A stretch of 62,406 nucleotides of DNA, counting the filler, from Vannella sp. (lineage: Eukaryota): assembly GCA_023345925.1 (NCBI GenBank). It is 8 parts of 8 records of this genome, joined end to end, with 100 filler letters (N's around TTAATTAATTAA, not from the genome) between each part and the next. Parts side by side here need not be neighbours in the genome. Positions count along the whole stretch, not along the records: positions 1 to 12,224 come from JAJQQN010000876.1; 7 more parts are not named here. One strand, given 5' to 3'. Below are positions 1 through 49,202 of this stretch, in pieces; position 1 is the first letter of the stretch, and every line of letters starts with the position of its first letter. A program made the position numbers and the translations under genes. Below the pieces are notes generated by a model. The model had not been told where the DNA came from. It saw only the letters and a list, made by a program, of their open reading frames with translations, and did not search any database.

Positions 1-86
1 ATCTAAGTGCTTTCTTTCCCACTTGTAGTCTATCCGTACCTCCATACCAGAGTCCAGCAGTCTGCTTTACAGATCTATTTGGATTA

Positions 87-1412
87 ATGAATTCTCCTCC
101 ATTGGACTGGAAGTGTGAGATCGCCCACAGAGAGCTGCAAGTGATCTTAGACCAGTGTGTGCAAGAGGAAGATCTCAATGACAAGTCAGAATCGTTCCTT
201 GTTTACTCCTCCTCGATACGATACGCCAGAATGTCAGAGATTCTACTTAGCACAGTTTTTTCTAGTAATTCTAAATACTGGAATGCAGCGGCCTTCTTGT
301 CTCGGTTCTCTTCGCTCGAGTACCTTCATTTGCAACGAATCGATTTACCAAAAAGTGCCAAATGTGATTTGCTTCAATTGCTTCCGGCAGTTTTTCCGAG
401 GTTGAGAAGTTTCCAGTTTATTCATTCTCGGTCGGACAATCATTGCTTGCGTCTCATCTCGGATCTGCTCAATCACCTCCCACTGGAATCCTTGGACATA
501 GCTGGAAACGCATTTACACACTCAGGATTGGCGTTTTTAGCAGCTAATTTACGATCCAATCAATCATTGAAAAGCCTCTCCATCAGTAGCAATCTCATTC
601 CATTGCGATTCCAAGGGGAGCACTCTTATCATCAAGGAATGCGCCCTCACTGGGAACGCGATTACGGCCAAACTGCTGAGAAGGTCCATGATAGTGACTT
701 CGAAAATACACAACGCATGCTGGATTCTTGGCTGGGTACTTACGGAGTCGACACGCTTTTAGAATCCCTCGCAGAAAACTGCTCTCTTCAATTGCTGGAT
801 CTTGGCTATAACGAAATCGAGATTTCATACGTCCAGCAATCCACTTGGCAAAAGCTTAGAAACCAGAACGACACGATTAAGTGGCTCTTGCTGCAAGAAG
901 TGGCAATGGGAGAAGAGGAAGAAAGTGAGTTCAACGGCTTACAATATCTCCCACCTTCAGTGATTTATCTGGATCTCTCCAAAAGCGTCAACACAGAAAG
1001 CATTGTGATTGCAAGGAGCCTCTTATCTGCTTCAAGGAACTTTGATTCTCTCGAAGTGCTGGATCTTTCGGAGTGCGAGCAAGGCTTTGATCAGACATTC
1101 GCCATCCTTCTTTCTGCCCTGCTGAGGATGAGAAGGCTTACAAGCCTCAATCTCAGCTCAAATTCACTCCATGCCGCCCAAGCTCTGGCCATTGTGACAC
1201 TTTTGCTCCAGCATCCGACTTTGAATTCGGTCATTCTCCGCCAAAATTTCCTGAGGGGCAGTGCTATTGCTTTGGCTCTCACAATGTTTCAACACAGAAT
1301 CCTGCCACTCTTTATGGACTTGAGAGAGAACGACATTCTCCCAGAGGATCTTCTCAGAATGGGCACCCAACCAACACCAATCCATATCGACATTCAACTG
1401 ATTGATGAGTAA
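87..1412 (+). CDS. Leucine-rich repeat protein, ribonuclease-inhibitor (RNI)-like
   Basis: 441-aa intronless ORF with repeated LxxLxLxxN units (LESLDIAGN, LKSLSISSN, LQLLDLGYN, LTSLNLSSN). Confidence 0.8.
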   Translation: MNSPPLDWKCEIAHRELQVILDQCVQEEDLNDKSESFLVYSSSIRYARMSEILLSTVFSSNSKYWNAAAFLSRFSSLEYLHLQRIDLPKSAKCDLLQLLPAVFPRLRSFQFIHSRSDNHCLRLISDLLNHLPLESLDIAGNAFTHSGLAFLAANLRSNQSLKSLSISSNLIPLRFQGEHSYHQGMRPHWERDYGQTAEKVHDSDFENTQRMLDSWLGTYGVDTLLESLAENCSLQLLDLGYNEIEISYVQQSTWQKLRNQNDTIKWLLLQEVAMGEEEESEFNGLQYLPPSVIYLDLSKSVNTESIVIARSLLSASRNFDSLEVLDLSECEQGFDQTFAILLSALLRMRRLTSLNLSSNSLHAAQALAIVTLLLQHPTLNSVILRQNFLRGSAIALALTMFQHRILPLFMDLRENDILPEDLLRMGTQPTPIHIDIQLIDE

Positions 1413-1701
1413 AGAGACTCAACCCATTCCCAATTCTCTCCTCCTGGAAGTTCTCGAGAAGAGGAACATTTCGAATCTTCTTTTGCCTTGACACTCCCTC
1501 CATACATGGTGCCATGGGTTAGGTGGTCTCAAGTTGTCCAAAACAAAACAGAGATGAAACAGACTTCGTTTAAAGTAGTTTCGGAGTCCGAAGCGAATTG
1601 TAGGGAATTGCTGGATGAAGTCTTTGCGCATCTCCGGCATATTTATTCCTGCGGACTTGAAATAGATGATCCGTGAGGCCATCCCTTCATTATGGGAGAA
1701 G

Positions 1702-1848
1702 CGGTTTATAAAAACTAGCCATAACCATCCCTGGTTCCCATTGTTTTGTGAGCTGTGGTTATGGTTCATTCAGAAGAAGCAATAGCCATCCCGAAGACAC
1801 CCGAAATCCTTACGGCTTATAAAAACTAGCCATAACCATCCGTGGTTC
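1702..1848. repeat. 36-bp direct repeat, two copies 111 bp apart
   Basis: CGGTTTATAAAAACTAGCCATAACCATCCCTGGTTC (1702-1737) versus CGGCTTATAAAAACTAGCCATAACCATCCGTGGTTC (1813-1848); 34/36 identical. Confidence 0.9.
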
Positions 1849-1906
1849 TCACCCTGATTGAACTCGCGGTCAATCAGTTTTAGAAAGTCATTGTGAAAGG
1901 ATTCAT

Positions 1907-3568
1907 TCACTTCCGAAAGTTCAATTGAATCGCCATGCGAATGGGATGAAGTGTGAGTGAGGGAAGCATGACTGGGACAGGGCCGTTCGCACAAAGCGTA
2001 ATTTGGCAGGATGACAACATGCGCCAAACGATTATCTTCAATTCAATGAGGGCCAAGCGCATTCCGATGCAGCTGCGTGGAGCTCCTCCAAAAGGCAGAT
2101 AATGGAGACTCTGCTCCTCGCTGAGAGGAACTAAGAATCTCTGAGGACGGAACTCTTCAGCATCGTCACCCCAGGCCTTCTTATTTCTCTGTAAAGCCAG
2201 AATGCTGATAAAGATCTCACTTCCGGCAGGAATTGAAGTCCCGCAGATATCTGTTGGAACAATTGAGGTTCGTCCGATGGATGCAGGTGGATAGAGCCGA
2301 AGAACCTCTTTGATTACAGCAGAAAGATACTTCAGCTTCTCAAGGGAGGTAGTAGTTGGCTCCCTTCCCCCGAGGACTTCGTCCAGCTCGCACCGAACTC
2401 GTTCTTGAATCTGGGGATGCTTTCCAAAAAGATAAAGCATCCAGGCCATTGTGGACGCTGTCGTGTCGTGCCCGGCAAAGACGAGCCCAACGCACTCATC
2501 CCGAAGTTGGAGCGCTTCCATCTTCAAGGAAGGTTTGTCAGATTCATCAACTCCTTCCTCAATCATAAGGGATAAGACATCCTCAAACTCCTCCCTCTTT
2601 TGGGGGGACATCCTTAAGCGCTGCTCAATCAATCCAGCAATTCGTGACTTCAAACGATGCAAATGTCGCCAATACCGGATGTTTGCGGGTGTTGGAAGAT
2701 ACTGCCAGAACGGGAATACGCTATCTTGCCATATCTTCCATCCAAGCATGGCTAGAACTACATCAAATGACTCTGCCAAGCTACCATGGAATGGCTCACT
2801 GAAAGTGTACATCCCAATTGTGTCTGAAGTCAGCGATATCATCTCATGGAATGGATCCAATGTTAAACAAAGCACCCCATTGCTATCAACACATGCCAAT
2901 TCTCTCCACTCCTCAATCCGATCGAGTATAAGTCGATCAACGATAGAAATAGCTCTCTGTAGCGTTCGTACAGCGAATCCCAGCTCCAGGATCTTAGTTG
3001 AAAGATCACAAAGACCATTAAGCATGCTACATAGGCTACCAATCAAGGAACACTCACCTTTCGATGCTTCTTCCAGGTGGGACCGGAGACAATCAAGAGA
3101 CTGTCTCCCAGCAGCGGTCTGGACAGCTCATAACCAAAGTTCTTCCGGTAGGATACTCCATCAGAAGCAGAACAGACTGCACGGACCTCTTCTCCTCCTT
3201 GTAGACCAACGAAGGGGACAAGGCCAACGAATCTATGCGAGTGAGCCTTCCCTCTCCCTCCAGAGGCACTCCCATACTCACCCAACGTAGATCGGTCCGT
3301 ACTTTTGTGTGTTAACAATCGCTTCTTGACCAAGAGCGACCATACCGTCCTCCCCGCGCATCAAATACCGAAGGATGGCCCACGTTCGTCCCCCCAGTAG
3401 CCAATGCAAGCCTGCTACAGGGACTGAACAGCTCAGAGCTTGGTTCCTTTGAAACACAACAGAGAACTGCCGAACCAAGCGGACGCCCACCAGGAGTACC
3501 AACAACGCGATCATCGTCACTCCTAGCTCCCCCACCTCCCACATCCGCCCCCAATTGACTCCCTTCAT
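1907..3568 (-). CDS. Cytochrome P450, at least 2 introns
   Basis: N-terminal TM anchor, I-helix AGHDTT, K-helix EVLR, FRPQRF and heme motif FGGAPRSCIG. GTGAGT...AG introns near 3233-3281 and 2993-3057 join three ORF pieces. Confidence 0.95.
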
Positions 3569-3576
3569 GTCTCCTT

Positions 3577-3980
3577 ATGATACGGAGGGATCGTTCTTTT
3601 CGAGTTCTCTTGGAGATAAAGATACGAAGGCCAGTTGGGACATTCTGGAGACGAAAAGGTGTTCTTTCCCATCAGCAGTATCCCTTGCATCGCGCCCTCA
3701 CTTTGAGTGAAGAAGGTGCGTGGAATTGGGATACGCAATTGGGGGACGTCGATCAGCCTGCAAACGACTTGGAAATGCCAGAAGAGGCTTTCGCGATATT
3801 TGTCTAGGAGGGAACCACTCTCTCCTTTTCGATGTTTGTCCAGGAGGGAACCACTCTCTCCTTTTCTTACCGAAAGGAAATCTTTTTGTTTTTGGATACA
3901 ACTGCGATGGGACTGTTGGCTTCAACACGACTGACAATCATTCCATTCCCACCATCTGCCCACTTGTAAGCAACTTCTGA
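3577..3980 (+). pseudogene. Degenerate RCC1-repeat fragment
   Basis: RCC1-like pieces in different frames: DTEGSFFS, SWR*RYEGQLGH, TQLG, and VCPGGNHSLLFLPKGNLFVFGYNCDGTVG. They are separated by a stop and frameshifts. Confidence 0.55.
3794..3866. repeat. 36-bp tandem duplication
   Basis: CGATATTTGTCTAGGAGGGAACCACTCTCTCCTTTT followed directly by a copy with 2 mismatches. Confidence 0.9.
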
Positions 3981-4224
3981 ACGAGGGACGGAAACAAGAG
4001 GGTGAGGGTTTATTGAAAAATTAATCTGAATAGAATCGGATCAGGACCATTCCTATGTAACACCACTCAGCTGGCTCCCGTCATCCTGTCCTCTGCAAAC
4101 GGAAGAGCGCTCGTTTCTAAACTTCGCTCTTTCTGTGAGCTCCCAAGGACACCCGGGACTCCAGATTCCCTTCGACTCTTTGCTGATGGTCCAAGTTAAC
4201 AGGGTAAACGCAAGTTTATAGGAA

Positions 4225-4845
4225 TCAGAACATGTCAAAGTTAGAGTGGTCAATCAAGTCTAACACTGGAGTATGTTGCACATTGTCTCCTCCCCAGTCA
4301 AATAGTGGTTGTTGGTTGTTCAATTGGAAACGATCTGGGCGACTGCGCGAGAAAACGAACGCCCGTCGAGAAGGAGATGGCCCTTGAATGCCTCGTTCAT
4401 ACCAAACGAAAGAGTAGTGAGCTTCTAACAGACTATCCGAGGCTTGAATGAGCCACGTCCTGAGAGGCAAGTTTTCGGCAAAGAGATGGGCGTGCTCCAC
4501 TTCGCTTAGCGATAAATGAAGAGAACCATCCACTGAGGTCAGGTTGGCGAATGAGACTAGCTGGGGCAATCCCCAATCAGTTCCTGGACGGAGGTCCAGA
4601 GGATGTACGCAACCTCTTATGAATGAAGAGTGGCCTGAGCGTGGGGGTTCTTGTGAGGGAACAGAGTCCCAAGTCTGAAACGAACCCAAGCCCAAATGAG
4701 CTTCAAATTCCTTCACCGCAGCAGCTTGCGAGGAAGTCAGCCCGTGGGCTGCAAACATGAGAGATATGCAGGAGAATTGTTCCTTCGCGGCCGATCGAGA
4801 TGAGATTACTTTTAGCTCTTTCTCCTTATATGGACAATTCTTCAT
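4225..4845 (-). CDS. Hypothetical protein (structure uncertain, possibly spliced)
   Basis: 206-aa ORF with no recognisable motif. Confidence 0.3.
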   Translation of the reverse strand: MKNCPYKEKELKVISSRSAAKEQFSCISLMFAAHGLTSSQAAAVKEFEAHLGLGSFQTWDSVPSQEPPRSGHSSFIRGCVHPLDLRPGTDWGLPQLVSFANLTSVDGSLHLSLSEVEHAHLFAENLPLRTWLIQASDSLLEAHYSFVWYERGIQGPSPSRRAFVFSRSRPDRFQLNNQQPLFDWGGDNVQHTPVLDLIDHSNFDMF

Positions 4846-5085
4846 GTTTTGAACCCCGTCGGTCCATCAGCTCTTCAAAGCTTGCAAATTATCCAATTGA
4901 TAGTCATTTTGTGAAGCGGAAAGCCTTCTTTTGTGGAACTCCTTTTCTGGACAACGTTTACTTGAATGATTGCCGATCGTGCGATTCTCATTGACTGAAG
5001 TTGCGATTAGCAATCAACCCAATTCGGCACAAACTCCGTGGAATCGCGATTGCGATTGCGGCTGAGATGATTTCATGATTGCCAA

Positions 5086-5594
5086 TCAACCAGTTACATT
5101 TTCCTTCGCATTGAAGTGGTAAGCACTCCGGCCCCTTCCTGATATGTTGTACCGGACTCCTACCTCCTCGAACAACTGTTCAGCGGAACTCTTCCAGAAT
5201 GGCCCAATTTGATTTTGATCAATCTGAGGTTGCTGTGAGCACTCATCGTTGTTGAAGAGGGAGGACAACTGCTTCACTTGATATATTTTGGACCCTTTTG
5301 CTCTCCTTCTCTCAGTCCAAGTGCAATTCGCACAGCAACGCCCTCTTCAAGTGATGGCGATCGAGGAACGAGCACTGCATCAGATTCACCCTCTCCATTG
5401 CCCACAGAATCAGAATCATCAGTATGTACGCTCTCCTCAAGCAATCTCGAAAGCCGCTCGTCATCAATCAGCTCCTCGGCCAGTCCTCTTTTCTCCATAA
5501 GCCCTTTCCTAATCGTCTCCGTATTCGCCTCATGGTGGCTGGCTTGGTTGCTTAGGCCGTAGAATAATCGGCCCATCAACGAGACAGAACGCAT
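5086..5594 (-). CDS. Hypothetical protein (possibly spliced)
   Basis: Two abutting ORFs (106 and 63 aa) with an acidic, protein-like segment; no motif. Confidence 0.3.
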
Positions 5595-5810
5595 CCTTTC
5601 ATGCTGACGAGAACGTGCTCAGATCCCCCTATTTCTTTTCACTTCCCTTCTCATAAACGTGGCCAATTAGGCCCTCGCATCGAAAAAGCTCAACTTTCAA
5701 TCCAATCTGCAGATGCGTTTTTTGGCAGCTCCAGCCACATCTGCCACCTAATGGCCGTTCCATGAATTCCAACTCTATCCTGGGACATTCTAGAGCATGA
5801 TAAGTGCGCT

Positions 5811-6568
5811 TTAAGCTTTGGAAGAGCGAGAGAAGGTGGACTTGAAAGCTTCTCGAGCTGTCAAACGCTCCTGATAGGCGATGATCGCTGGATAGTCAAC
5901 CAGGAGCTCTCCCTTTCGGATGATCGATGCCCACCACACGTTGTACCCAATCTGAAGCAGAGGTGAGCCCACCAGAAGAGAAGGGAAGGAAGGGGCGCAC
6001 CACGCAGTCTGCCACGGTGAAGTGGTCCCCACAGATCCACTGTTTGCCCTCCAAATGGGCATTGAGAGTGCGGGCGAATGTAGTGAAGCGCTTGCGCTGC
6101 TTGCTGATCAGAGCCTCATCACGCCTCTCTTCGGGAGTGTGAGTCAGCTGCATGTAGAGCGGCTCCAGGATCTGGTCTCCAGTACTAGTGGCAAGAAAGA
6201 TCCACTAAAGATCCAATGGCAGTGTCAGGCGGTGTTGGGAAGACGTCAGGAGTGCATACATTGAAATAGGAACCCGCCTCCCCTTCCCTTGGAAGGAGGC
6301 TTCGCGCAGCTGCTTCGGATTGGTACAAATCAGCGACATACATGCAGATCGCTCCACTCTCAAGTAACAGCTCCCCATGGGGAAGCCTCAAAGCAGGAAT
6401 CGTACGGAAAGGATGAACTTCTCCGTAGGCTTCGAGGGCTGCCGGGTTCCCATGCAACGACACCTTTTCCACCTCAAACTCGCTCTCCTTTCCCAACTCT
6501 GCAATCACCCAAGCACAGCGAGAGGAACGGAAAGGGTAGCTGTGGTAAAGGACGTGGCGTTGGCTCAT
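5811..6568 (-). CDS. Glutathione S-transferase, 3 exons
   Basis: MSQRHVLYHSYPFRSSRC..., HPFRTIPAL (cis-Pro loop), ESGAICMY and GDHFTVAD N-cap. Introns GTATGC...TTTAG and GTGCGC...TTCAG restore a full ORF ending in TAA at 5811. Confidence 0.93.
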
Positions 6569-6735
6569 AAGGAGACGGGACAGAATGAGGGGGAAATGCC
6601 CTTTTGACCAATCCCCAGAGGTCAAGAACCCAAATGGCTTGAGTGTGATGCACGTTTAGACATGGAAAGTAAGAGATACCGGACTGGGTCAAAGGAGGTG
6701 ATCCGCAACACCGCCTTTGGCTGAACGTCGTACTC

Positions 6736-6776
6736 CTCAATGGAAGGCGGCCAAGGCTTTAAGCCTTCCACTTCAT
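6736..6776 (-). promoter_or_regulatory. Eukaryotic SECIS element (type II) in the selenoprotein 3' UTR
   Basis: Minus strand ATGA-AGTGGAAGGCTT-AAA-GCCTTGGCC-GCCTTCCAT-TGAG fits AUGA-N12-AA-N20-GA. It has a 9-bp helix II (GTGGAAGGC/GCCTTCCAT) and an apical mini-stem GCC/GGC. Confidence 0.9.
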
Positions 6777-6829
6777 AGGATTGGTTTCTCACACAAACCA
6801 TGAATGACGTGCCAAGACGAAGACTCGTC

Positions 6830-7173
6830 TTAAGGGGAGAACCCTGCTGCCTGCATGGCAGCCACGGTTTCACCCGCAGCAGGGAACTTGCCGGTGGTTA
6901 GCTTCGACCAGAACTCTGTCAGTCGGATGAGAACTAGAAAAGACCTTCCTTGTAAGCCACTCACGGTTACCACTGTCATCAGTGATCTCGAAGGCGCTCC
7001 CTCTGGGTTTCTTGAGGTTCCCCTCCACCACCGCAGAAGGCCACACAGCCTTGATTTCGTCTCGGATTTTGTTGAATACTCTGCTGTATCCTCACATGGT
7101 GCTGCCCAACCATCAGAAGTCTCCCTAACCTCTCAAAAGCGACTCACCAGTACTCAATGTGGATTCTCGGCAT
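6830..7173 (-). CDS. SELENOW-like: Selenoprotein, SelW/Rdx family (CxxU), 82 aa; exons 7173-7148, 7101-6965, 6915-6830
   Basis: Spliced product MPRIHIEYCTMUGYSRVFNKIRDEIKAVWPSAVVEGNLKKPRGSAFEITDDSGNQFWSKLTTGKFPAAGETVAAMQAAGFSP*. In-frame TGA at 7094-7092, Rdx motifs FEI and WSKxxxGxFP, and a downstream SECIS. Confidence 0.92.
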
Positions 7174-7362
7174 TGCGACGACAAATAAATGAACGAGAAG
7201 GAGCCAATCGGGAACTCCTTCAAACCAAAATTTTCGGAACTTTTCAACTCCGAAAAAATGAACCCCAAAGGCCTCCGAATCTTAGATTTGTCATTCATTT
7301 GTGATATCGGAGCAATTTCCAGGTGGAATCGGCTCGGAAAGATCAAAAGAGCATTCTTTCTG

Positions 7363-9034
7363 ATGCGGGCGGGCTTGGTGTTGCTGCTGGGGCTTGTGTT
7401 GGCTGTGACAGCCGATGATTTGCGTCCTCAGTATCATGCGGTGCCTCCATCAAACTGGATGAATGACCCGAATGGGCCGATCTTCTACAAGGGGCTGTAT
7501 CATCTCTTCTTTCAGTACAACCCGGACGCCGCGGTCTTTGGTGTCATCAATTGGGGCCACATGGGTGAGTGAGAGCGCTATTCGGTGTGCGCATGCTCTG
7601 AACCCCCGTAGTGAGCTCTGATTTGATCCAGTGGCAGTGGAAGGGCGTGGCCTTGACACCCGGAGAGAACATCTCCGACCCAGACCACACGGGATGCTGG
7701 ACTGGAAGTGCAGCCATCGACACCACAGGAACAAACCTCCCAACTATCATCTACACCGGTGTCCGCACTCCTGATCACTTGGAGAGTCAAATGATCGCCG
7801 TGGCAAAGGATGACGAGATCTCCTCCTGGGTCAAGGCGGACAGCAATCCTATCATTGCAGAACCTCCGTTTAAGGAGCTACCTGGTAGAGTTAGCGGATT
7901 CCGGGATCCCTCCTTCTGGTTCGATGAAGAACTTGGCCAATGGAGGATGATTATCGGTTCGGGTGTGAAAGGAGTGGGCGGGTACATCCTCATGTACACA
8001 GCAGACAAGTTACAGGGCCCTTGGACATACCAGAACCCCCTTTATTACAACAACAACACCCAGTATCATGGGGACATGTGGGAGTGCCCGGACTTCTTCG
8101 AACTCTCCACTATTTCAGGCAACTCCTCTCGCTGGGTGCTCATCTTTGGTGACGATAGAGCACAAAGGAACTTCTACATGATCGGAGCCTTTGACAAGGT
8201 AGCAGGGGTCTTCATTCCAGACCCTGCCTTCCAAAGGGGAGGCCTCATCTTGGATGCAGGCAACTACTACGCTTCGAAGACGATGCTGGATTCCAATAGC
8301 GGCCAGCGTATTCTTTGGGGATGGAGTCCTGAAGCTCGTACCCAAGCTGCCTACAAAGCTGCCGGATGGGCGGGAATCCAAACCATCCCGCGAGTTCTCG
8401 CACTTTGTGAAGATCTCTCAACCCTTCACTTCGCTCCAGTTCCCACTTTGGATGGCATAATCAAGTAAGATCAAAAAACGAGTCAAATGAGCCCTTCTGA
8501 GCTCTTGTCCAGCGGCTTTGCCCAGTCGGGCAACCAAGTCAAAATCAGAGCTTCTTTCCGTTTCCAAACTGGAAGTGAGCAGGTGCGTATCCTTGCAAGA
8601 GAATGTATGCCTTTTCTGAGGAGTTATGCAGGAGGTTGGGCTTTACGTGTTCAAGTCGAGTGACAAAAGGGAATTCACAAAAATCTCTTTTATCCCCAAA
8701 ACCCGGATGCTGACTATTAGCCGGAACGCTTCTTCTCTTTCCCCTGAGGCTGACTCATCTCCCATCTCTCTTGTGGTCCCAAGAAATGAGGTGAAAGACA
8801 ACGAGCTCTATTTAATTGTTCTCCTCGACCACTCCATCATCGAAGTGATCGCAAATAGTGTGGCCTGTATCACTGCGTGAGTATATTCCCTCTTCCCCAC
8901 ATAGAAACTCACAAAGGAGACCAGCCGGGTCTATCCCACTCTTCCCGATAGCACAGGCATCCAATACTACTCGCCCCCCTTCTCCGCCGCCATCGTCGCT
9001 TTCCGGAGCATTTACTCGTCTTGAAACAGACTGA
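7363..9034 (+). CDS. Secreted GH32 beta-fructofuranosidase/invertase, about 4 introns
   Basis: Signal peptide, [31 protein letters not shown] and C-terminal LLDHSIIEV. Confidence 0.95.
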
Positions 9035-9111
9035 CATGAATCCCGTTGTTTCCCATCTATTGGCACCCTTTTCATCGTTCAAAGCTTCATTGAGACGTTT
9101 GGAGAAGCCTG

Positions 9112-11911
9112 CTAGTCAGACCACTCATCATTGTCGACCATGTCATTGAATTCAGAGTAGTTGGCGCCAACGGGAACGACAACCTCGCCTTCCTTGAAGT
9201 TGTTGGTGACCTTATTGAAGAAGCCGTCCATCACTTGCTCCTTGGAGACGCCACCAGTCCCACGTTTGGCCTGCTCTGCATCAAAGTCGTACTTGCGCTC
9301 ACGCTCGATCTCAGGGGCCTCGGATAAGTTGGTCATATCTGCTGGCTTGTAACTCTTCACGGGTCTTTGAGCGTTTCGTCCTTGCATCCAAGCTTGTGCG
9401 GTCAGTGCAGGCTCATCGGTTGGCATGTCAGTGTAGATGTCATCCTGGAAGAACTCTTTCTAGAAAGGGAGGAAAGTGAGGAGAAGCGCGAGACAGAGGG
9501 AATGCAGATTCACTTACTCTGGTGCGTGGAACAGTGAAAGAGAGAGGTTGGACGTTCTTAGTAGTGAGCTTGAGCATGTACGCAATCTCCACATTACGGA
9601 CATCACACGAGCGACGAGGAAGGACAGCCACACCGACTTGAGGCTCTGCAGTTTGGAACTTACTGAGCAAGTGAGCAAAAGGTGCCTCGTCCACAATCTC
9701 AAAGTAAGAGATCGTTCCATCACCCTTTCCAAGGATGTAGAGGATGCTGGTGCCCTCGTCAAAGTAAGGAGTGATAACACCCGAAGCAGTGTCCAAGGCA
9801 ATGGTGCCCACAGGCTCACTGAAACGTCGCACATCCCAAATAGAGAACTGACGCTCGCTAGTCTTCGAGAAGCCAGCGCTAATGATCTTGTCCTGCCCTC
9901 CCATCCAAGTAATCTTGGTGGACTTGGCGCCCTGATGGCAGTCCGCCTCTGCTGTTACCGTGTTGGATCGAGGATCGCACACGCGGAGCTTCTTATCCTT
10001 CGAGGCAGCAGCAAAGCAGCTTCCGTTGTAGTTCCATTGGAGGCTCTGCACGTAGTCAGGGATGCCTTTGAAGGTACTGGTGGCCTCTGTAGAGGCTTCA
10101 ATGTCCCAAAGCTTGACTGTCATGTCATAAGAGGCAGAAGCGAGCAGAGAGGAAGCGACGGGGTTGAAGGTTGTGAAGATCACCTTCGAGTAGTGACCAC
10201 TTAAGGTGGTCTCAGCGGTCCGATAGTTAGTCTTCTGACTAGACAGGCCAACAGGAACCTTCCAGATCTTCACCTGGGCGTTCTCCAAGCCTGTGGCGAG
10301 GATGTCATCGTTGAAAGGGTTCCAGTCCAGATCTAACTGGTTGGATCCGCACTCAATCAAGCCAGGAGTGTCAGAGACACGATAAGGCTTGGTGATATCA
10401 AACACACCAACCAAGCCACCCGCTCCACTCCAAGGCACACAGAACCACTTCTTGTTGGCCTTGATGGACTCCGTCTCTGAAGAGGAGTTGTCCGCTTTGA
10501 CGTTCTCGAAGAACTGGCTGCGTTGAACGAACTTGCCAGCCACGTGGCGGTACTTGGAAGAGCGCACGATGTTGAGCTTGGGCAGCTCCTTCTTGCTGGC
10601 GCGGGCTTCTTCCTCACTTGCAAGGCGTTCAGCCTCTTCAGCGTCCTTCTTTGACTGCTCCTGTTCCGCTTCAGTGACTCCTGCGGTCTCTGGGTGCAGG
10701 CTGACTAACACAGGGTCAGCATTCGAGCCCTGGAACCAAGCACTGGCGTCCAGGGCGGCGATGGGACCGGGAGTGTTGGGGAAGAGGTCGTCAGCAAAGT
10801 GTACCTTGGATTTGCGAGGCACTGTGAAAGAGACAGGTGCCACAGCGTTGGCAGTGAGCTTGAGGACCCTGGCAACCTCGCAGGCCATCACATTCAGGCT
10901 TCGCTTGGGTGCGAGGCAAGCAGACTTGGTGGGCACGTCAGACACGCACTGAGCAAGCTCACTAAGGTCTCCTTCACTGTGCTCAAAGCAGCGGATGTTG
11001 CCGTCGCCCATACCAGCCAAGAAGAGCATGTCAGTGTCGCCATCGTAAAGAGGTTCCAGGATGCCCGTGGAAGAGTCAATGTTGATGGTCTTCACTGGTT
11101 TGTTGAGTTCTCTTTGATCCCAAACCATCAACTGGCGCTCTCGCATACGAGAGAAGCCGGTAGTGGCAAAGAAAGAAGACTTTCCTAACCAAACAGCCCG
11201 AGAAGCTTTCACTCCTTGGTGTCCTTCTACCTGCTTCTCACCAACGTCTAGTTAGTTCGTAAAACCAATCAAGGATCACGAAGAACCAACCTGAACAGCC
11301 TGTTGTGCACGAGGGTCCCAGATGGAGACAGTCTTGTTGGCTGTAGTCGCAGCAAAGAGACTTCCGTTGTAGTTCCACGATAGCCCTTGAATGAAGCCAT
11401 CTAGCTCACTTCGGAGGGATGCACGTCCAGCTTCTACGTCCCACACGAGTGCTTGTCCGTCGTTGCCACCCGAAAGGAGAACATTGGAGGCTGTTGGGTG
11501 CCAGCGAAGGACTGCCACACGTTTCTTGTGGTCTTGAAGGTCTGCTCGAGCCTCAGAGAGGTCTTTTGTGAGCCCTTCGGCGGGGAGAGACCACAAACGG
11601 AGGCGACCATCATCAGCTCCTGTCGCCAGAAGGTTGTCGTCATGTGGGGAGAACTGCAAATCGAAGATTTGGGCAGAGTGAGCGTGAATCTTAGCAGGCT
11701 CTGTCTTCTGCTTGCCTGTCTGAGAGGAAGCGAGGACAGAAACGGCGTTTCCGCTTTCAAAGACCACCGCCACATGCTGGGTAGATGCTGCGATGCATTG
11801 GGCATCGGATGCGGACACAGAAGGACGAAGGTCGACCATCCACTCATCTCTGCGAGCCAATAGCCCAGTGGCATGACGGTACTTTGATGAGTTGCGGAAC
11901 CGAGACGACAT
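9112..11911 (-). CDS. CORO7: Coronin-7 (tandem coronin), 2 introns
   Basis: Two coronin WD propellers, each starting SKY/FRH, with signatures GDGNIR/GDGTIS and SFTVPR. Acidic C-terminal DNDEWSD tail. Confidence 0.93.
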
Positions 11912-12224
11912 CAGAAAGGCAGGAAAGAAGTGAGCCGTTTGAGCCCACAAAGATGGATCATGTTCACTTGAGAAAGAGTTTATTGCCAAAGAGAGAGAGT
12001 TCATACAAGGACGACAGTGTAGATCTGAGAAGACAGGTTAGTTTTCAAGTGACAAAGGATCATGCGCTTGGAGGGTAGGAAGATGTCAGTATTTTACATC
12101 TATAGTTACTATCATCTTGGTTCAATGTAGCTGGTTGGGTCATCACGATGATCCCACCCATCCAAGCGCGCATGCAACTCACCTCGACAGAAAAAAAGTG
12201 ATTGCCAGGACAAATTTCTGAAAG

Positions 12225-17424: not shown

Positions 17425-20400
17425 CTGGATCTTTTGTTTCACTTGTTCCCAAAGACTCTGAGATAACCGCTGAGTTAAATGTCAGAAGCATGGAGAGTTC
17501 TTACCATTCGCTCCTCAGATACCTCTGGTAACTTGTTGTCTTCTTGCCTACGAACTAGAGAATAGCATTCCTGGATAATAGAGCGATCTTTGGAGAGCCC
17601 ATTTGTCTCGCAGAACTCTCTGGCTGAATCGAATTGTCCTGTTTGTAAAAGCAAGGTCTCAATAGCCTCAAATGAAGTGTCCAAATTCACGATACCTAAT
17701 CGACTCTTCTCCGAAATGGCGAAAATAATCTGCCAATGATTCCACTTCTTTGTAATGGGATGCTCCACCGCAATTTCAAGAAGCTTTCGCTTTTCAAACG
17801 TGGTAGCGCCCACTAAGAGCTGCTCGACAGCCTGTAGTGTCAAGTTGTACAAGTTTTCGTTGCTTTTTTCAACCTCAAGCTGCTGCTGTATCTTTCCCAA
17901 AGCCTCACAGGCGATATCAAATTGTCTCTGTTGGAAGGATCTGTAAAAGCGTGCCAGCTCCCAAATGTAATGTCCAGGGTTGATAATGGCCAGCGCTCGC
18001 TGGACCTCAACAGATAGCTCATGTGAGAAGTACCACAAAGTAATAATAGCCAGTGCTTTTTCGATCTCAAGAATTGGTTCGTCATCCAAGGAGAGCAGCG
18101 GAGGGCGGGGGCGAAAGAGAATTCCCTCCACAAGAGGAGAATAAGTGGAGTCCATAGGACATGTTGGAGACAAGTAAAGCCACAAAAGCAGCAATAAAGA
18201 GCTGTAAGTGGTTGCTAAGTGCTGAGAGGCAATGATAACATAAATTCGCTCCTCAAATAGGAAAGCCTGTTGCAGGTAGAAGAGCCCCAGCCGTTCTTTT
18301 GCCATTCCATTCGCAGCCCCTCCAACTTCTAATAGCAGGTGCTCAAGTACAGGACTAACTCTCTCAACTCCAATCCCACGGCGCTTTCTCTCTGCAGGAG
18401 CTGCGGCCAATAGTCGCATGCGGAGGGCGTCTTGGTCTTTTCCTGCTCCTTTTCGCAACCGCTTTTGCAAGATGAATTCCCCGAGAGATGCAGCCGGGCT
18501 CGTGCACGAAATTCTACCTAAAAGTGCTTCCAAGTCAGATTGAGGAACTTCCCACACCTGAACTTGATAGAAGAACTGAGCAACATCAAGAGATGACGCT
18601 AGTTCCTCTAAAGGAAGCATTGGGAGTGTGAGGTTGTGTTGTTCTGCAAAGCGGAATACCAGTTGCCATTTACTTGTGGACTGGTGAAGCGCATTTTCAC
18701 TCTTTCCCAGTGATTCAGTAGCTTGCTGTAACCAAGCGTATAGTTGCGGATCTACTGACTCCATCAATGAGCTACCGGCATTTTGCAGTTGCTTCAGGCT
18801 AACGCTTGGGGAATTGGAGCGGGAAATCCACTTGGAGATCCGAGATAAGGCCAATAGATTAACCTTCATAGCAACACTGTCCAAATGACAGAGATTAAGG
18901 AGTACCAGACAACTAGCGCATACTTTTTGGTCATCTAAGTGTGATAATACAACACGCCAAGTCCTCTCAGTCAAGTTTTTTGTAGCCTGTGACCATCTAG
19001 TGGGAGAAGAGAGGAATTGGAAAGCTTGGAATGGCTGCCCAGCAACCAGAAAGTATTCTACATCAAGCTGGTCACTCCAAACATCTCTTGAGAGCGAATG
19101 ATTGGCCTCCAGCATCGCCAAGAAAAAGTTTTCGGAGTTCTTTTGTGGTCTGGATGACTGCCTGAACCATTCTAGAGAACAGGAATGGAAGGGATCAGTA
19201 ACAAAGCTTTGATGGGCCTCCCAGACTGCCTCCCAAACCTGTTCTTCTTGAATATCATCAGATGACAAAGAATGGTAATGCGGGAAGAAGCCTGCTTTGT
19301 CAAGCAGTGCGCACTCGAGTCCCGGCATCTTCCGAGAGAGCTGCTGGTAGAACTCCGAGAATCCAGATTTTGCACCAGATTGGGACAGAATAGGGGACTG
19401 TGAGCACACCAAGATACCAAGTAGTGCCTCAGTGTGTCCCTGTGTTTGTAAAAGTTGGCAGATGCTCTCCAGGGAGGGTGATGGCATCTGTGTGACTCCA
19501 AATTCTAGCTCTACACTGGAAAGAGCGGCCTCTAAAATATTGTCTTCAGACGGCTTTTGGAGATAACGCATCAATCGGCTCCAAATTGGAATCGAAGCCT
19601 CTTTGTGAGGCACCACAATATCATGAAGTGACAGGGAATCAATGTACCTTTGCATGATTGCCGGTGCTTTCCACTGCTCCAGTCCTTCAATGATCGCCAG
19701 ACTTTCTGCTGGCTTAACAGGTGCTGAGAAGAGGAGTTCGCTCCGACTCTGAAGTGCAATAAGAGTCTTTGAATCGCTTGAAAGAAGACCTGGATCTATC
19801 AAACCACGTTTCGCAAGATTGAAAGAAAGCTCTTCTGCCAGTGCCGCTGACGCATTCGCCATCAGCTTGGGTAAAATGGAAGCCATCTCATCTGGCAAAA
19901 GATCTGGCCAACTACAGGGAGGGCTGGTGGCTTCTTGAGTCCAAGGTAGTGTGTCTAGCCAGGAACCGAAGCGAACAGGATCATCCAATCGGATTTGGAA
20001 ACGAAGCTGAGTGAGGAAACTGGCTGATTCGAGGGAGCTTTCATCTTTCTCCAATAGGATAGCATGACAATTGTCGTCTCCCCACTCAGTGAGCCAGGAG
20101 AGACTAAAGTGACCGTAACCTGATCGATCTCCTTCAAGGCGAGAGCTATCTTGAATCGGCTCTATCTCTATTCTCGTGGGCCCTTTCATCAGAGGCATTC
20201 CGATGGTAGTAATGAATTCAACAGTCTCTGGTTTAAGATCCTCCATGTCCATAAGCATCTCAGTTGCCGCGCTTAACTTGCACTGCATTTGGTGACTTGA
20301 AGCAACATTCTTGGTCATATCTGCAAGGTCGATGCAAATAGAGGAATGGCTGCTCCCATACGGTGAATCTGCAAATAGCTGTGAATCCCAGGAAGCCACT

Positions 20401-23183
20401 CTTTGTTGCTCCGACTGGCGTTTCATCAGCTCAAGCACCAAGTAAGGGTTAGGATAGGCACCCGCTAATTTACTCTCCCAAAGAAGTACTTCCGCAAGGT
20501 CACTGAGATCTTCGTTTTTCTTTTGTAGATACTCAACAATCGAGCTTCTCAAGTGGCGACGAGAAGTTGACACGAGAACGTCTTTGAGCATTGAGAGAGG
20601 ATTAACTCCCAAGTGAAGAAGCTGCGTATCTGCAGATTCCACATTCCCAGAAGTCAAGGTCTGATAAATTACGGAAAAGGCTGTTTGGGTGAACGAGTCA
20701 AAGCCGATGGAGTTCAAGCCTCCTTCCTGGCGGAGACTCAAAAAGCTCAATGCGGTCGAGATATTACCAGAAAGCAAGGCATCGTGAATAATATCCAGGT
20801 CTCCAATTTGATGGAATCTTTGGAACGAAGTGGCGAAGCTCACTTCCTTGTCAAGAACAGGAATGAGCTGTAATGGATCGGAATAAGATGAAACAGAAAG
20901 AGCTGCTTGGCGAATTGCTGATTTGCTAAATTCAGCGTGTTTCTTCAAACCATGGATAAGACGAAGTAAATGAGACATGAGAAACAGACTATCTTGAGTA
21001 CTGGTTGGTGGGGAGCGGAGTAAACTGACATAAGGCAAATCAGTTTCGCTTGGAAGCGCAGATAGTTGCTGATTCAGAATGGCTGCCTCAGCAAAGGGTA
21101 AAAGAGCAGAGGTTACTTGCATGTCAATACAGGGAGGAGGCGAGCATGACTCGCGGGAATTGAAAAAGCAACATACTTGTAAGAGGAAGGTCTTTGCTGT
21201 TTCCAAGACGAACCGATAAAACGAGTCAATTTTGTCCTGCTTTCTCGCACAAAGGAAGAGGATCAGCTGCTTAGTAGCATGGTGCCATTGCTGCTTGGTA
21301 AGTGCAGACAAAGCAGAAACAATGTAGTTGCGCTGTTGGAAGTGAATTCCAAGTCTGAAAGACAAAAGAGGAAGGTCTGCTTCCTCCCAGCCATTTAGAG
21401 TGCAGAGTAGGTTGGCAGCCTTCTCATTGCCATTCAACATCAGAGAATGAAGTATTTCAGTCTCGCCCTGTCCCCACAGCCAAGCGCTGATGAAGTGGTC
21501 AGTCCCACTGAAAGTGAGCAAGTTCAATGCGCTTTGTGCAACGCTAAGAAGAACATCTGATGGCTCAAGAGGAAGAGAGTGAAGTAATTGTAGCTGGGGA
21601 GAGAGTATCAATGCGATTCTGGCATTCCCCTTGCTCTCTTGGGCAACAGCAAAAATCTCTCGACCTCGAATTTGCACTTGGTTGATGTGAAAGCTGCCAG
21701 TGTGACCTTCTCTTAGATAATCTAGTGAACTTATGTCGAATATTGATCCCATTGGCTCAACATCAGGTTTGCTCGTCTCCAGTTGTGGAGAATTTTTGCT
21801 CTGACTTGTCTCTGACTTGTTCTTTACCGTGAATCCGTTGCAATCATGCTGGCGGCCCTTCGAAGCGGGAGCGCTCCAAGGTTGGTTGGAACGTTCTCTT
21901 CTGTTTGTCCCGTGATTCCGGGACTTGATATTCCCGTTGGACACCAATTGATACCAAGGGGTTCCTTTCGGCGTGTTCTCGTCAAATCTTGGGGAAACGG
22001 CGATCTGAAATTGGGGACCAGTGCGAAGAGGTCTTTTTGCAAGATGCTGCAAACGAAGAGACTCCGAAACACATACCGAACGCTTATAAGGTTTCAGAGT
22101 CAAATGACATCCATCATGATTGAAGCTGGCTCTCTGCTCCATCCGACTGAACCCATTCCTAGAATGCTTGCGACCAGAACCTATCTGGGCCGAATCTTGT
22201 GGCGGGAAGGTCGAAAAATAGGTATCCAGGTTGACGACAAACATCCTCTGCGAGCCACAGAGGAGGAACCAATCAAGACTCGAATCCACAACAAGGTCAA
22301 TTGGTTCCTCCTCCTGGAATATCTCCAGCTTGGGGGAGCAGATTCCGCCGTACTTCACGAGATCCACCTGTGCTGTTAGTCTCCCTTTGATGGCGTCAAA
22401 GATGGAGATGATCTTCGTGTCTGCCCAAGAGTCACTTCGGTGAAACAGCCAACGTCCTTTCACTGCAAGAAGGCGTGTTCCTTCGCTTGGGAAGAAGCCA
22501 GTCAGATCCATAGCATCCATTGTAGTAAGAGAGAAGTAAGCTATGAAGCGGCAGCCGGCTGAGTCCTCCAATTCAAGAACAAGAGACGATCCTTCAGCGA
22601 TAACTCGGCAGATTCGCTGTAGCTGGAGCTGAGAGTAGCCTTCAAGCGTCTTCACACATGTGAGTATTGTATCTAAAGGTAAAGACATGGAACAGATAGA
22701 AGCTTCGCCTGTTTCTGGGCCTTCGCGTATACATTCGCTCCTTATCCGAGGATAAGGATGGTGGCGACAAGGATGCTCAAGACTAACGCCACAGGAGAGT
22801 CTACTGGCTGTTTTGGCGAGTTGATGATTGAGCCCAATCGCTTGGTGGGACTCGTGAGGGAGAAAGAGAAGATGAACGATAGATTCTCCGATGTCCAGCC
22901 CACAGAGAGCAACTCCCTGTCGATAAGAAGAAGAAATAGAGTACGATGTTATCCATTGCATCTTCTCAGCTCGGATATCCTCCCAATGAAGCTGTTCCAA
23001 GTGAAGTAGTCCTCCCTCCTCAGCTTCGCTTCCCAACTGCATCTCTGCTGGACTGCTGTGATAGACACAGACCTTCCCACCCTCAAGGGAGTACATCCAC
23101 TGTCCTTCAGGAGAGAGCCCACCCACAGCAAAGTCCCCTAGAGGGGCAAGGGAGGCCAACCTCCGTAGTCGAGTGGCCACCAT
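17425..23183 (-). CDS. SPG11: Spatacsin (SPG11)-like AP-5 accessory protein, 3' truncated
   Basis: About 1900-aa ORF, propeller-like N-terminus plus helical solenoid. YFLVAGQPFQAF and WQLVFRFAEQHNL...LEELA resemble conserved spatacsin segments. The ORF runs into a donor site near the contig end. Confidence 0.7.
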
Positions 23184-23279
23184 CAACAAATGGCGTCGTA
23201 GATCGCTCGTTTATGGATTCAGGCATAATAAATAGGGAGGGGAGAGTGTCGGGGGAGGCAAGGGAGCGAGGAGGAGGGC

Positions 23280-27168: not shown

Positions 27169-28708
27169 ATGCAGGTTCTCCGTTCTGCTGGACGCGCCTC
27201 CGCCCTTGGGCTTGCCCAAGTCCGCGGTAACAGCAAGATCTCTCAGATCATTCCCGACCTCTCTGCTCCCATTTTCCGCCGCCTGGCCAAGGTAGAGACA
27301 CTGGGAAACGGCATCCGTGTGGCCACCTACCCTGTAGAGTGCACCAACGCTGCCTCCGTTACTCTTCACGTTAAGACTGGAAGCAGATACGAGACAGAAG
27401 AGAACAACGGTGCTAACTTCTTCATTGAGAAGCTCGCTTTCGCTGTAAGTACCACCCCTGGTCACCCCCTTTTTTCCCCCTCTCGTGGGTGATCCCCCGC
27501 TCTTCTCTCCTCAACGTAGACTACCGGGAGGAGCATGAAAGTCGCTGATTATTCTTAAAAAATAGGGAAAGTCTCCTTCAGGCAAGAAGTCGCTCGCCGA
27601 GGCTATTGAGGACATCGGTGGCCACGTGCACCTGGACCACGGCAGAGAGCACACATCGTACACGATCAATGTTGAGGCCTCTCAGCTCCGTGTTGCTACT
27701 CAACTGATGGCTCAAATGGTGAACAACCTTTACAACATCACCCCTGACCAGGTCGAGGCTCTCCGCTACAGAGTTCTGAACGAGAAGGCTGTTCTGGAGA
27801 ATTGCGTGAACAATCAATCCCTTGACCACTTGCACGCTGTAGTGTATCAGCAAGGATCGTTGGGTCTTCCCATCCAAGGCAGCACCACCAACATCCAGAA
27901 GATGAACGCTCAGACTCTTTCCAATGTCGTTAACCGCTTCTACACTGCCGATAACATCAGTTTGGCTGTTGCTGGTGATGTTATTCCCTCTGAGTTTACC
28001 AAGGAGGCTGCGGAAGCATTCTCGAAGGTGTCCTTGTCTCGTGAAGCGATCTCTTCTGAGCCCTCGCGATACTTTGGTGCATTTGTCAACGACCGAACTG
28101 ATAGCTCCTCGGACAACGCCCAAGTAACGATCGCGTATGATGGCTGCAGCATTAGCTCTAGTGACGCGGTTCTTCTTTCTGTCGTTCGTGAGATCGTTGG
28201 CGACTACGACAAGTGGAGCGGAGTTGGAAACAACAGCTCCAGCCGCCTGGCTGAAGTCGCTGGTACTGAGAACCTTGCCGACTCTTTCCAGACCTTCTCC
28301 CAGAGCTACAGCGATGCTGGTCTCTTCGGAGTCACCGTGGCCACTCAAGGAAAGAACCTGGATAACCTCATCTGTGAGGTTTGCTCTGAGTTTGTGCGAT
28401 TGGCTCACAATGCTCGTCCCTCCGAGGTTGCTCGTGCCAAGCTCGCCCTCCAGAACAAGGTACTTCTCGGCCATGATGGTGTGAGCACTCTCAGCCGCAA
28501 GACCGCGTTCGAGACTGCTCAAGCAGGCCAAAACCACACTCTCAAGTCCAAGTTGGACCTGATCGATGAGGTCACTGTCGAACGTGTTCGAGACCTTTGC
28601 ACCAGAAAGTTCACGGATACCGAGCCTGGATTAGTCGGCATCGGAAGCACCCACTGGCTACCTGACTACAACCAAGTCCGTGGATGGACTCACTGGTGGA
28701 GAATCTAA
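27169..28708 (+). CDS. Mitochondrial M16 family protein, MPP-beta/complex III core 1 type, with degenerate zinc motif; intron 27445-27565
   Basis: Arg-rich presequence, TLGNGIRVAT, GSRYETEENNG, YSDAGLFG and C-terminal LPDYNQVRGWTHW. HxxEH is replaced by FFIEK. Confidence 0.9.
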
Positions 28709-32934: not shown

Positions 32935-33218
32935 ACGTGAACCAAGAGGAGCTTCTATCAAGGATCTCATCACCTAACTCTTCGCTACTCTGTCCGTTTA
33001 CAAAGATAAACTTTGAATTGGCATGAAATGAACAGATTGGCTGACCAGTTCTCCAGTTTCCGAGTGTCACTGGCATTTCTCTTGAATAGTGTTCGTTGAT
33101 GAACAGAGGAAGTTTAGTGTCCCATTACAAATGGCCCTCTTCGAACCAAATGACAGGATTGGATGAGATTAGATCAGATTGTCGACGTTTGGGCTGATGG
33201 TTGGTAGATCCTCTCCCT

Positions 33219-47476: not shown

Positions 47477-49202
47477 ATGGGGCGGATCATCTCTTGGAAG
47501 TCGCTGTCTGGGATCGACACAAACTTGGCGCCACTTCATGAGACCGCATTCAGCTACCTCTACCAGGCCTCTTGCAATGCGACCCCAGTGCTCGTTGAAT
47601 TCCCGAAAGTCCCAGTCGCGTGGGACCCAAACGACCCAGAACTGCTCCAAAGAGGGAACCAACGCCACCCTAACCTCTTCCTGATCCTGGGAGCATGTCT
47701 GGATTCAGGAATCACACCTTTCTGTATCATTCTGGAGTTCCCAGGGACGGCTCTGTCCAAGCACCTCCCTCAAAGCAAGGCACTCCTGTTTGAGCGCCTC
47801 CTTTGGGCCCAAGACGCAGCGAAAGGGTAAGAGCCTTCATCTCCTCTTGTTGAGCTAACAAGAAGCTCTGGAAAGTGTTTTGTGGCTCCACTCCTCCTCT
47901 CCTCAGTTCTTTGTTGGAGATTTGACGGTCTCTCGCCTTCACCATGACATCGGGAACACCGCTAAAGTTCACTCCTGGAACCCTTTCACGCCAAATGTCC
48001 CCATTAACCAGTTTCCTATCCCGTACGACCAACTGGCTCCTGAGCTTTCAATCCCACTCACTCATGGCCCAATGAAGGGCGCAGATGTGTTACGCACCAG
48101 AGGTGCGCCACTGCAGTGTGCTCTCCGCGGAGGGAGATGCATACAGCTTCGGATTACTCCTTTTCGAGATTTTGACGCAAAAGCCGATTCAAAGCTTCGC
48201 TAGCTTTGCTCAGAGTAAGAGTGGAGACTTCCAGGCGCTTTGGCTGACTTGTGGATAGCAATGGACGTGAGGAGCTTGCAGATGCCTGAAAACTGTCCTC
48301 CTGAACTGAGTGGACTCATCGTTGAGTGCTGCTCGCCAGAACCCGCTGCCCGTCCCTCTTTCACTCAGATTGTAGAGCGATTAGAACGCGTTGTTGCACC
48401 AGCTTGTGAGATCTTCTCCTTCGAAGAGCGCATTCAGAGGATACCGGATGAAAATGGGCAAGATCTGTGGCGCTCTTTCTTCTTCCGCTTCGATGTGGTA
48501 CCTTGGACAACGTTCTCTGATTGTTTCTTCCCCATCAGAGTGTATGGGCCGGCACAGCAAGGCTATGCAGATCGGATTGTGGAGGGAGATGAGATGTGCC
48601 GACTGTCGGACCATCCTTCACAGGAAGATCTGGACGAAGCCACACCCGAGCAGCTTGAAGACCTCAGAGAGCGAAATCGCTTGGGACGAGCCATTGTTAC
48701 TCGCCATCTGGAGCGGCATCAAACTGTTGGTTATGTAACCAAACCTACTTCAGAAGAGGAGGATTGGGTGAAGCACATTGTTTGCCCTAATCACTCCAAA
48801 GAGGTGACTTTGGCAACTTTCTGTGAGCTAATCGCCTGGTTTGGGCCACTATCAGATGTTAGTGGATTCTGCGATCGTCTGGCTCAAGTCATGTCCAATC
48901 CTTACTTCCATGGGAGACTCAGCTTCAAAGAGGCTAACGGAATCATCGGGAAGCCCCCTCAAAAAGAGGGGCCTTGTCTGGTGAGGTTCAGTGGAACAGC
49001 ACTGGGGGGCTTTGTTATTTGTTACTTAACAAAGGATGCCGAAGGTGTCCCCAAGATCTTGCACCATCCCGTCTCTTACCACAAACTTCGAGGATTCCAC
49101 TTCAACAACACCTTTTACGATTCTTTCCCCGACCTCTTGAGAGGCGCTCAGCGAGTTCTTGGCTTTTCTGGTCCCTGCCATGGTTCTCCCCTTCTCTTTT
49201 AA
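47477..49202 (+). CDS. TKL-type pseudokinase plus C-terminal SH2 domain (Shk-like architecture), about 3 introns
   Basis: RHPNLFLILGAC, WAQDAAKG, WLHSSSP, YAPEV, DAYSFG and PAARPSF. SH2: YFHGRLSFKEANG...LVRFS...GGFVI. Confidence 0.8.

Follow-up and report, generated by a model that had tools for sequence, protein, structure and literature searches.

In the excerpts available to us, eukaryotic SECIS elements (Rfam RF00031; PMC3753652, PMC2761289) lie in the 3' untranslated region (UTR) behind a gene with an in-frame UGA and carry AUGA and GA at the base of helix II. The published consensus of the 3' core is KGAW (PMC3753652), and the internal loops vary and set recoding strength (PMC2761289). 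According to the available part of PMC1874613, human SBP2 prefers a non-Watson-Crick pair above the tandem G.A/A.G pairs and binds canonical kink-turns with a 3-nt bulge in vitro, with binding about four-fold better when the loop is open than when the kink-turn is closed; closing the loop of rat D1 nearly abolished selenocysteine (Sec) insertion (Martin et al., second hand in PMC1874613). Sec use is documented in Amoebozoa (PMC2375036, PMC8038987; both in part). Dictyostelium discoideum has five selenoproteins, with no SelW among them, and all five of its SECIS elements have UGUA before the core and a U-U mismatch after it (PMC2375036). A type 1 SECIS is predicted for the TrxR of Acanthamoeba (PMC8038987); the candidates that PMC3753652 gives for Acanthamoeba and Physarum rank low and are left aside here. 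SelW itself is described there as one of the most widespread eukaryotic selenoproteins (PMC2375036). A literature search combining Vannella with selenocysteine found nothing relevant by title.

The DNA analysed here, which we call the window (62,406 nucleotides with filler), consists of eight pieces joined by N spacers, and its first piece (1-12224) holds a gene of the Rdx family followed by a SECIS-like hairpin, both on the minus strand (Table 1). The hairpin at 6776-6736 is very probably a eukaryotic SECIS, predicted to recode the in-frame UGA of the Rdx gene as selenocysteine. By analogy with known SECIS elements, its tandem G.A/A.G pairs would put a kink in the RNA and be bound by a protein of the SBP2 type; together with eEFSec and Sec-tRNA, that protein would recode the UGA 266 nt upstream, and the product would be an 82-residue thioredoxin-like CxxU oxidoreductase. 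An initial annotation had proposed that the hairpin serves the upstream UGA; the gene model, splicing confirmed by RNA and the alignment of the UGA with the Sec site of Rdx proteins all support this.

Table 1. Features of the Rdx gene and its 3' UTR, in window coordinates.
Feature	Positions	Strand	Basis or remark
Exon 1, coding part (from ATG)	7148..7173	-	gene model; RNA contig X5 over 7169-7148, joined to exon 2
Intron 1, 46 nt, GT..AG	7102..7147	-	exactly absent from RNA contig; shorter side 22 letters
Exon 2, with the CxxU UGA	6965..7101	-	TIGR02174, Pfam Rdx, RNA contig, no letter different
In-frame UGA, codon 12, predicted selenocysteine	7092..7094	-	alignment to bacterial Rdx proteins
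Intron 2, 49 nt, GT..AG	6916..6964	-	exactly absent from RNA contig; shorter side 103 letters
Exon 3, coding part, TAA 6832-6830	6830..6915	-	TIGR02174, gene model, RNA contig
Hairpin 1 over the stop codon, 7 bp, 4-nt loop, -6.8 kcal/mol	6814..6831	-	5/200 shuffles, picked post hoc
5' arm of possible distal helix	6806..6810	-	pairs with 6729-6725
Segment complementary to 6778-6772, could sequester AUGA	6798..6804	-	fold prediction
Hairpin 2, weak, 6 bp, 7-nt loop, -4.4 kcal/mol	6782..6800	-	15/200 shuffles
UCC, 5' arm of 3-bp stem with 6736-6734, predicted C-stem of compact kink-turn	6778..6780	-	
AUGA, 5' strand of SECIS core	6773..6776	-	sequence
Helix II, 5' arm, 10 consecutive pairs with 6748-6739, one G.U	6763..6772	-	
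Apical region, 14 nt, unpaired AAA 6760-6758, marginal mini-stem 6757-6750	6749..6762	-	
Helix II, 3' arm, and GA (6738-6737) of tandem G.A/A.G	6737..6748	-	
GGA, 3' arm of 3-bp stem under core	6734..6736	-	
3' arm of possible distal helix	6725..6729	-	fold predictions

Compared with the eukaryotic SECIS, the locus has the same place in the 3' UTR behind a UGA gene, the same AUGA/GA at the base of helix II, and an unpaired AAA 12 nt past AUGA; its G.U at the fourth helix position is a purine-pyrimidine pair of the kind favoured for SBP2 in the excerpt of PMC1874613. It differs in its Rfam score below the cut-off, in UGAG instead of KGAW and in an A-U pair above the tandem, and instead of a strong helix I at the usual distance it offers a possible 3-bp stem without a 3' loop. 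The mini-stem is marginal, so the element is assigned to neither type I nor type II. With the SECIS elements of Dictyostelium, as they appear in the available text, it shares the AUGA core, the apical AAA and presumably an amoebozoan host, but it lacks their UGUA before the core and their U-U mismatch after it.

Joined, the three exons give 82 codons and a TAA, with a single UGA in a CxxU motif near the N-terminus. Exons 2 and 3 match the SelT/SelW/SelH model TIGR02174 separately and in order (22.0 bits over model positions 8-47 and 12.3 bits over 54-72), each alone under the cut-off of 34.2; against Pfam Rdx, exon 2 scores 17.6 bits, under the cut-off of 22.6. To score the protein as a whole we built a profile of our own from the best 30 loci from 201 bacterial genomes (73 with a match), on which the spliced protein reaches 45.7 bits over model positions 1-73, compared with 8.0 for the top of 2000 shuffles. 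The column of the UGA is the second CxxU/CxxC position in all 30 bacterial proteins and is filled by TGA in 27 of them and by Cys in three. The encoded protein resembles the Rdx family (TIGR02174/PF10262) in its length, its N-terminal CxxU and its conserved middle and C-terminal motifs; it is divergent, and 'SelW-like' is meant at the level of the SelW/SelT/SelH family. Splicing is confirmed by a 262-nt RNA contig (run X5 of study P3, which is another study than that of the best DNA matches), a single contig of depth 3.6 in which both introns are exactly removed, the UGA is kept and no letter differs from the window over 7169-6813.

A search of 1.84 billion representatives with exon 2 gave no real relative, its single match being a repeat artefact without an Rdx match. 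None of 596 pattern matches was confirmed as a homologue, and two further homologue searches gave one candidate, none scored, and three weak unrelated matches. On the bacterial side, TGA stands in frame at the CxxU position of most Rdx matches in the acidobacterial phylum (27 of the 30 loci fetched); such TGA-bearing loci amount to many unannotated bacterial SelW-like selenoproteins.

The core of the hairpin is readily seen on the minus strand as AUGA (6776-6773), N12, AAA (6760-6758) and UGAG (6739-6736), as first described. The 9-bp helix II that had been proposed (6771-6763 with 6740-6748, one G.U) is extended by an A-U pair, 6772:6739, and the core AUGAA / UGAG allows the tandem G.A/A.G pairs of the GA/GA quartet. 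The distances also agree with those estimated earlier: 53 nt separate the TAA from AUGA (about 55 estimated) and 266 nt of spliced mRNA lie between the UGA and AUGA (about 270 estimated). The unpaired AAA begins 11 nt after AUGAN, within the SECIS spacing of 11-13 nt, and is predicted to be unpaired with P 0.67-0.96. Over both strands of the window (2 x 62 kb) there is a single site with at least 8 of 10 helix pairs, and it has 10 of 10. In 40 order-2 Markov windows the mean number of sites was 0.83 with at least 8 pairs, 0.13 with at least 9, and none with 10; the chance of the SECIS core in 270 nt is <0.002. The 41-nt core folds at -14.6 kcal/mol, a value as good in 3 of 200 shuffles. When the spliced mRNA was folded with seven assumed 3' ends, helix II was lost for one of them (6700). 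The mini-stem of the initial annotation fared less well: it has either two pairs closing 4 nt or three pairs closing 2 nt. The Rfam alignment draws it, but in all energy minima that retain helix II the 14 apical nucleotides form an open loop.

No second copy of an 18-mer of the hairpin occurs in the window. At 43818-43833 the 5' arm has a 16-nt match, which has no 3' arm and is antisense to a long frame; it was set aside as chance. In viral contigs a 21-mer of the 3' arm had no match, and a 17-mer of the 5' arm had matches in metagenome contigs at 118 loci or more; among the matches listed none was homologous, the longest match was 30 nt, and 2 of 118 had AA and at least 8 pairs in a loose test.

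To call the element 'textbook', as had been done, overstates the case, given the low Rfam score, the UGAG 3' core and the marginal mini-stem. The model search on the minus strand that had been suggested did return SECIS_1 (RF00031), with 20.9 bits over the full model (E 1.2 in 3.5 kb), which is under the gathering score of 35; it was the sole Rfam match at E<=10 in 5500-9000, and an Rfam search of the whole window did not list the hairpin at E<=10. The gathering score is a score threshold and not a mechanistic feature. We also re-implemented four SECISearch1 patterns from the supplement of PMC3753652, allowing NGAN for the 3' core, and the hairpin passes all four, helix I included. The helix I test, however, passes 6 of 7 upper-half matches in the window and the strict pattern has six full matches there, so that the pattern alone is no proof. 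What sets this hairpin apart from the other pattern matches is its unbroken helix and its location downstream of a UGA gene. The last base of its 3' core is G where KGAW has W, and the pair above the tandem is a Watson-Crick A-U. In short, the hairpin carries the mechanistic features that could be tested, while its Rfam score stays below the threshold and the last base of its core is atypical. Standard profiles miss a divergent Rdx gene whose SECIS scores so low.

The same UGA could be explained without a SECIS if it were a sense codon (Cys or Trp) throughout the genome and the hairpin a product of chance, a reading with nothing in its favour beyond the sub-threshold Rfam score. TGA ends the long frames of five recognisable genes (P450, GH130, ADH, AAA and MYND), the P450 being on the same piece as the Rdx gene. 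Sixteen long frames, of up to 1911 codons without TGA, hold 372 Trp/Cys codons among 9193 and use TGG and TGY freely; since these frames were picked as stop-free, the codon count is the weaker part of this evidence. These data largely refute a sense-codon UGA, which we consider scarcely tenable; the low chance of the SECIS core also speaks against it. With UGA a normal stop in other genes of the window, the Rdx UGA would need a gene-specific recoding signal, which is the role we assign to the SECIS. A 9-bp stem that surrounds the UGA in the spliced mRNA was considered as a recoding element and rejected, being equalled by 588 of 2000 synonymous recodings. No tRNA-Sec, eEFSec or SBP2 was seen in the window, which contains no tRNA at all. 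A stop-free frame of 91 codons at 6622-6897 (minus strand; 59 codons if counted from the ATG at 6801) runs through the SECIS and the last part of the Rdx gene; it has no Pfam match and is probably a shadow frame.

We then analysed the base of the hairpin, where helix I had been described as not obvious. A strong helix I of the conventional kind is indeed missing at the usual spacing, but that description overlooked two candidate stems, one of 3 bp right below the core and a distal one of 5 bp that can enclose hairpin 2. In the first of these, U6780-C6779-C6778 can pair with G6736-G6735-A6734, so that a 3-nt bulge, U6777-A6776-U6775, precedes the tandem. If the stem forms, the base would resemble canonical 3-nt-bulge kink-turns (U4 snRNA, box C/D, SELEX Se1-7; excerpt of PMC1874613), with C-G pairs closing the bulge and a bulge that ends in U and is followed by the tandem G.A/A.G; it would differ from them in having only three closing pairs and in being an mRNA hairpin with an AAA loop. 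A box C/D snoRNA was rejected for this site, which has no Rfam snoRNA match and whose two strands are linked by a short perfect hairpin.

These observations raise the possibility that recoding proceeds through a closed canonical kink-turn, with a stable UCC/GGA stem, perhaps a three-way junction with hairpin 2, and an SBP2 of this lineage suited to it. When the G.A tandem was held unpaired, the compact form was the energy minimum (-49.0 kcal/mol, compared with -48.2 for the open three-way form) and the stem had P 0.58-0.67, a level reached by 6 of 500 flank shuffles. Over the seven mRNA 3' ends it was the most persistent lower element (P 0.30-0.77). A closed base would also explain the G instead of W after the 3' GA, and the in vitro binding of such forms by human SBP2 (PMC1874613, in part) is compatible with it. 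Against this, the stem was noticed post hoc and has three pairs only; three in-register Watson-Crick pairs arise by chance in 1.6% of 20000 shuffles, and the pattern and 17-mer searches found no homologue and hence supply no covariation. In the excerpt of PMC1874613 both SBP2 binding and the rat D1 data favour an open loop. With an open loop favoured by SBP2 and internal loops variable, a stable UCC/GGA closure would be unusual.

The distal helix (6810-6806/6729-6725) would create a three-way junction that takes in both hairpin 2 and the core of the SECIS. Its P is about 1 in a 143-nt fold and 0.00-0.78 in the spliced mRNA, where it is lost at 3' ends 6660 or beyond, and it lies within chance: its cross-flank energy was reached by 85 of 500 shuffles and its enclosing pairs by 226 of 500. 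Literature searches for a SECIS three-way junction and for recent structural work found no precedent, with most subscription journals outside the search. We regard recoding through a closed kink-turn as possible yet the less favoured form of the mechanism, and it seems to us unlikely that a natural SECIS takes this closed shape, maybe as a three-way junction, with an SBP2 that recognises what mammalian SBP2 binds poorly. More likely, the UCC/GGA stem breathes. The lower part of the SECIS is likely weak and dynamic, consisting of UCC/GGA and whatever downstream pairing the 3' end allows. The SECIS itself is ordinary for the known eukaryotic kind, with a base possibly tighter than usual.

Another pairing involves the core itself. 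The segment 6804-6798 can pair with 6778-6772, and one may imagine a UTR switch that tunes Sec insertion, with AUGA hidden in this helix until the fold is shifted by SBP2 or by some condition. In the unconstrained 143-nt fold the competing helix forms with P about 0.55, and in the mRNA with 0.00-0.79; its best values (0.61-0.79) come with mRNA ends 6720-6680 and it is gone at ends 6660 and beyond. Energy models of this kind have no kink-turn term and thus overstate competing folds. We consider such a switch highly improbable.

The two inverted repeats upstream of the SECIS exist where the initial annotation placed them. Its view of this part of the UTR as almost fully structured was not confirmed: the fold of 6831-6780 has a z of -1.21, is as stable in 26 of 200 shuffles and is matched by 6% of 1177 GC-matched 52-nt windows of the same sequence. 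Nor do the two hairpins stand out as companions of the SECIS, since they are within chance and unstable across the seven assumed 3' ends (P 0.25-0.99 for hairpin 1 and 0.00-0.82 for hairpin 2). Both are likely incidental.

The RNA contig ends at 6813, 37 nt before AUGA, and so the SECIS is not covered by RNA. This leads to the alternative that the transcript already ends upstream of the hairpin or inside it, or that the gene is a decaying copy, in which case the UGA would stop translation after 11 residues and the hairpin would be a relic. In line with this, there is no AATAAA-like signal between 6829 and 6564, the Rfam score is sub-threshold, and one variant DNA contig lacks the 5' arm (see below). 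Yet contigs cannot show transcript ends, this one has no loose (poly-A) end at its depth of 3.6, and the DNA contigs of run X1, among those listed, likewise leave 6782-6843 uncovered. Moreover, the reading frame is unbroken and Rdx-like before and after the UGA, the introns are spliced and helix II is perfect, features that argue for a working gene. We give a truncated transcript or a decaying copy a very small chance, and maintain that the hairpin most probably acts as a SECIS. The contigs of runs X4 and X6 cover only the area of 5500-5973, outside the Rdx gene.

Two contigs of run X1 depart from the window. One (depth 6.75) follows it over about 6665-6747, an extent taken from bin depths that comprises the 3' arm of the SECIS and sequence downstream of it, and then continues with 125 unrelated letters that replace the 5' arm. 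The other (depth 3.62, with a side of 38 letters, 6644-6681) joins 6644 to 5743 and skips the whole glutathione S-transferase gene. They may come from a second strain, a duplicated segment or mis-assembly.

With this locus, a branch of the Amoebozoa that is poorly sampled gains a selenoprotein gene and a SECIS, and the pair can serve as a seed for the selenoproteome of the organism. Were the closed kink-turn real and shared, it would provide a natural test of the view that a SECIS needs an open internal loop; were it true, its base architecture would also lie outside the standard search patterns, and search models would need widening.

The window carries closely spaced eukaryotic genes whose introns measure 45-50 nt. 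Among public runs the best matches to its DNA are biofilm metagenomes of one study, and small shares of it occur in three freshwater or aquatic runs. The host was placed by one marker, an M16 peptidase on another piece (27566-28708). Its nearest named relatives are a protein of the MMETSP0472 'Tiarina' library (45%) and a cluster that holds Vannella robusta (43%); Clastostelium, plants and animals stand at 29-33%. The 'Tiarina' library is reported to carry Vannella rDNA in the available part of PMC6859813. A tree was made from 24 of the 38 matches (one half-length match and 13 near-duplicate plant proteins were left out), the V. robusta protein and the window protein. In it the window protein and two unnamed environmental proteins adjoin the V. 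robusta clade with support of 93/90, just under the starred level. Assuming that the pieces come from one organism, this marker suggests that the host is likely a Vannella-related amoebozoan.

The Rdx gene has the glutathione S-transferase gene (5811-6568, minus strand) as its direct downstream neighbour, oriented the same way and 261 nt past the Rdx stop, and the P450 gene is found at 1907-3600 of the same piece; the three form a small redox and detoxification neighbourhood that is likely incidental. Head to head with the Rdx gene stands a GH32 (invertase-like) gene (7189-8468, plus strand) with 36% identity to a bacterial protein. The piece also holds a tandem coronin of the coronin-7 type (9440-12037, minus strand), with 32-38% identity to animal coronin-7 proteins among the matches listed, a comparison that kept long, mostly insect proteins and therefore carries no lineage information. 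Two intron-free frames on the minus strand, 17475-23210 (1911 codons) and 42134-44275 (713 codons), are without a Pfam match, and just behind the ADH gene, at 33090-33147 (plus strand), there is a weak Rfam match to the box C/D RNA SNORD109A (27.3 bits, under the cut-off, E 0.18). Finally, a frame at 47500-49202 (plus strand) encodes the end of a protein kinase, then a Cbl-like region and a C-terminal SH2 domain. A protein atlas search with it gave no usable match, and the kinase part upstream looks degenerate by eye; a kinase with a C-terminal SH2 domain fits the Shk-type kinases of Amoebozoa.
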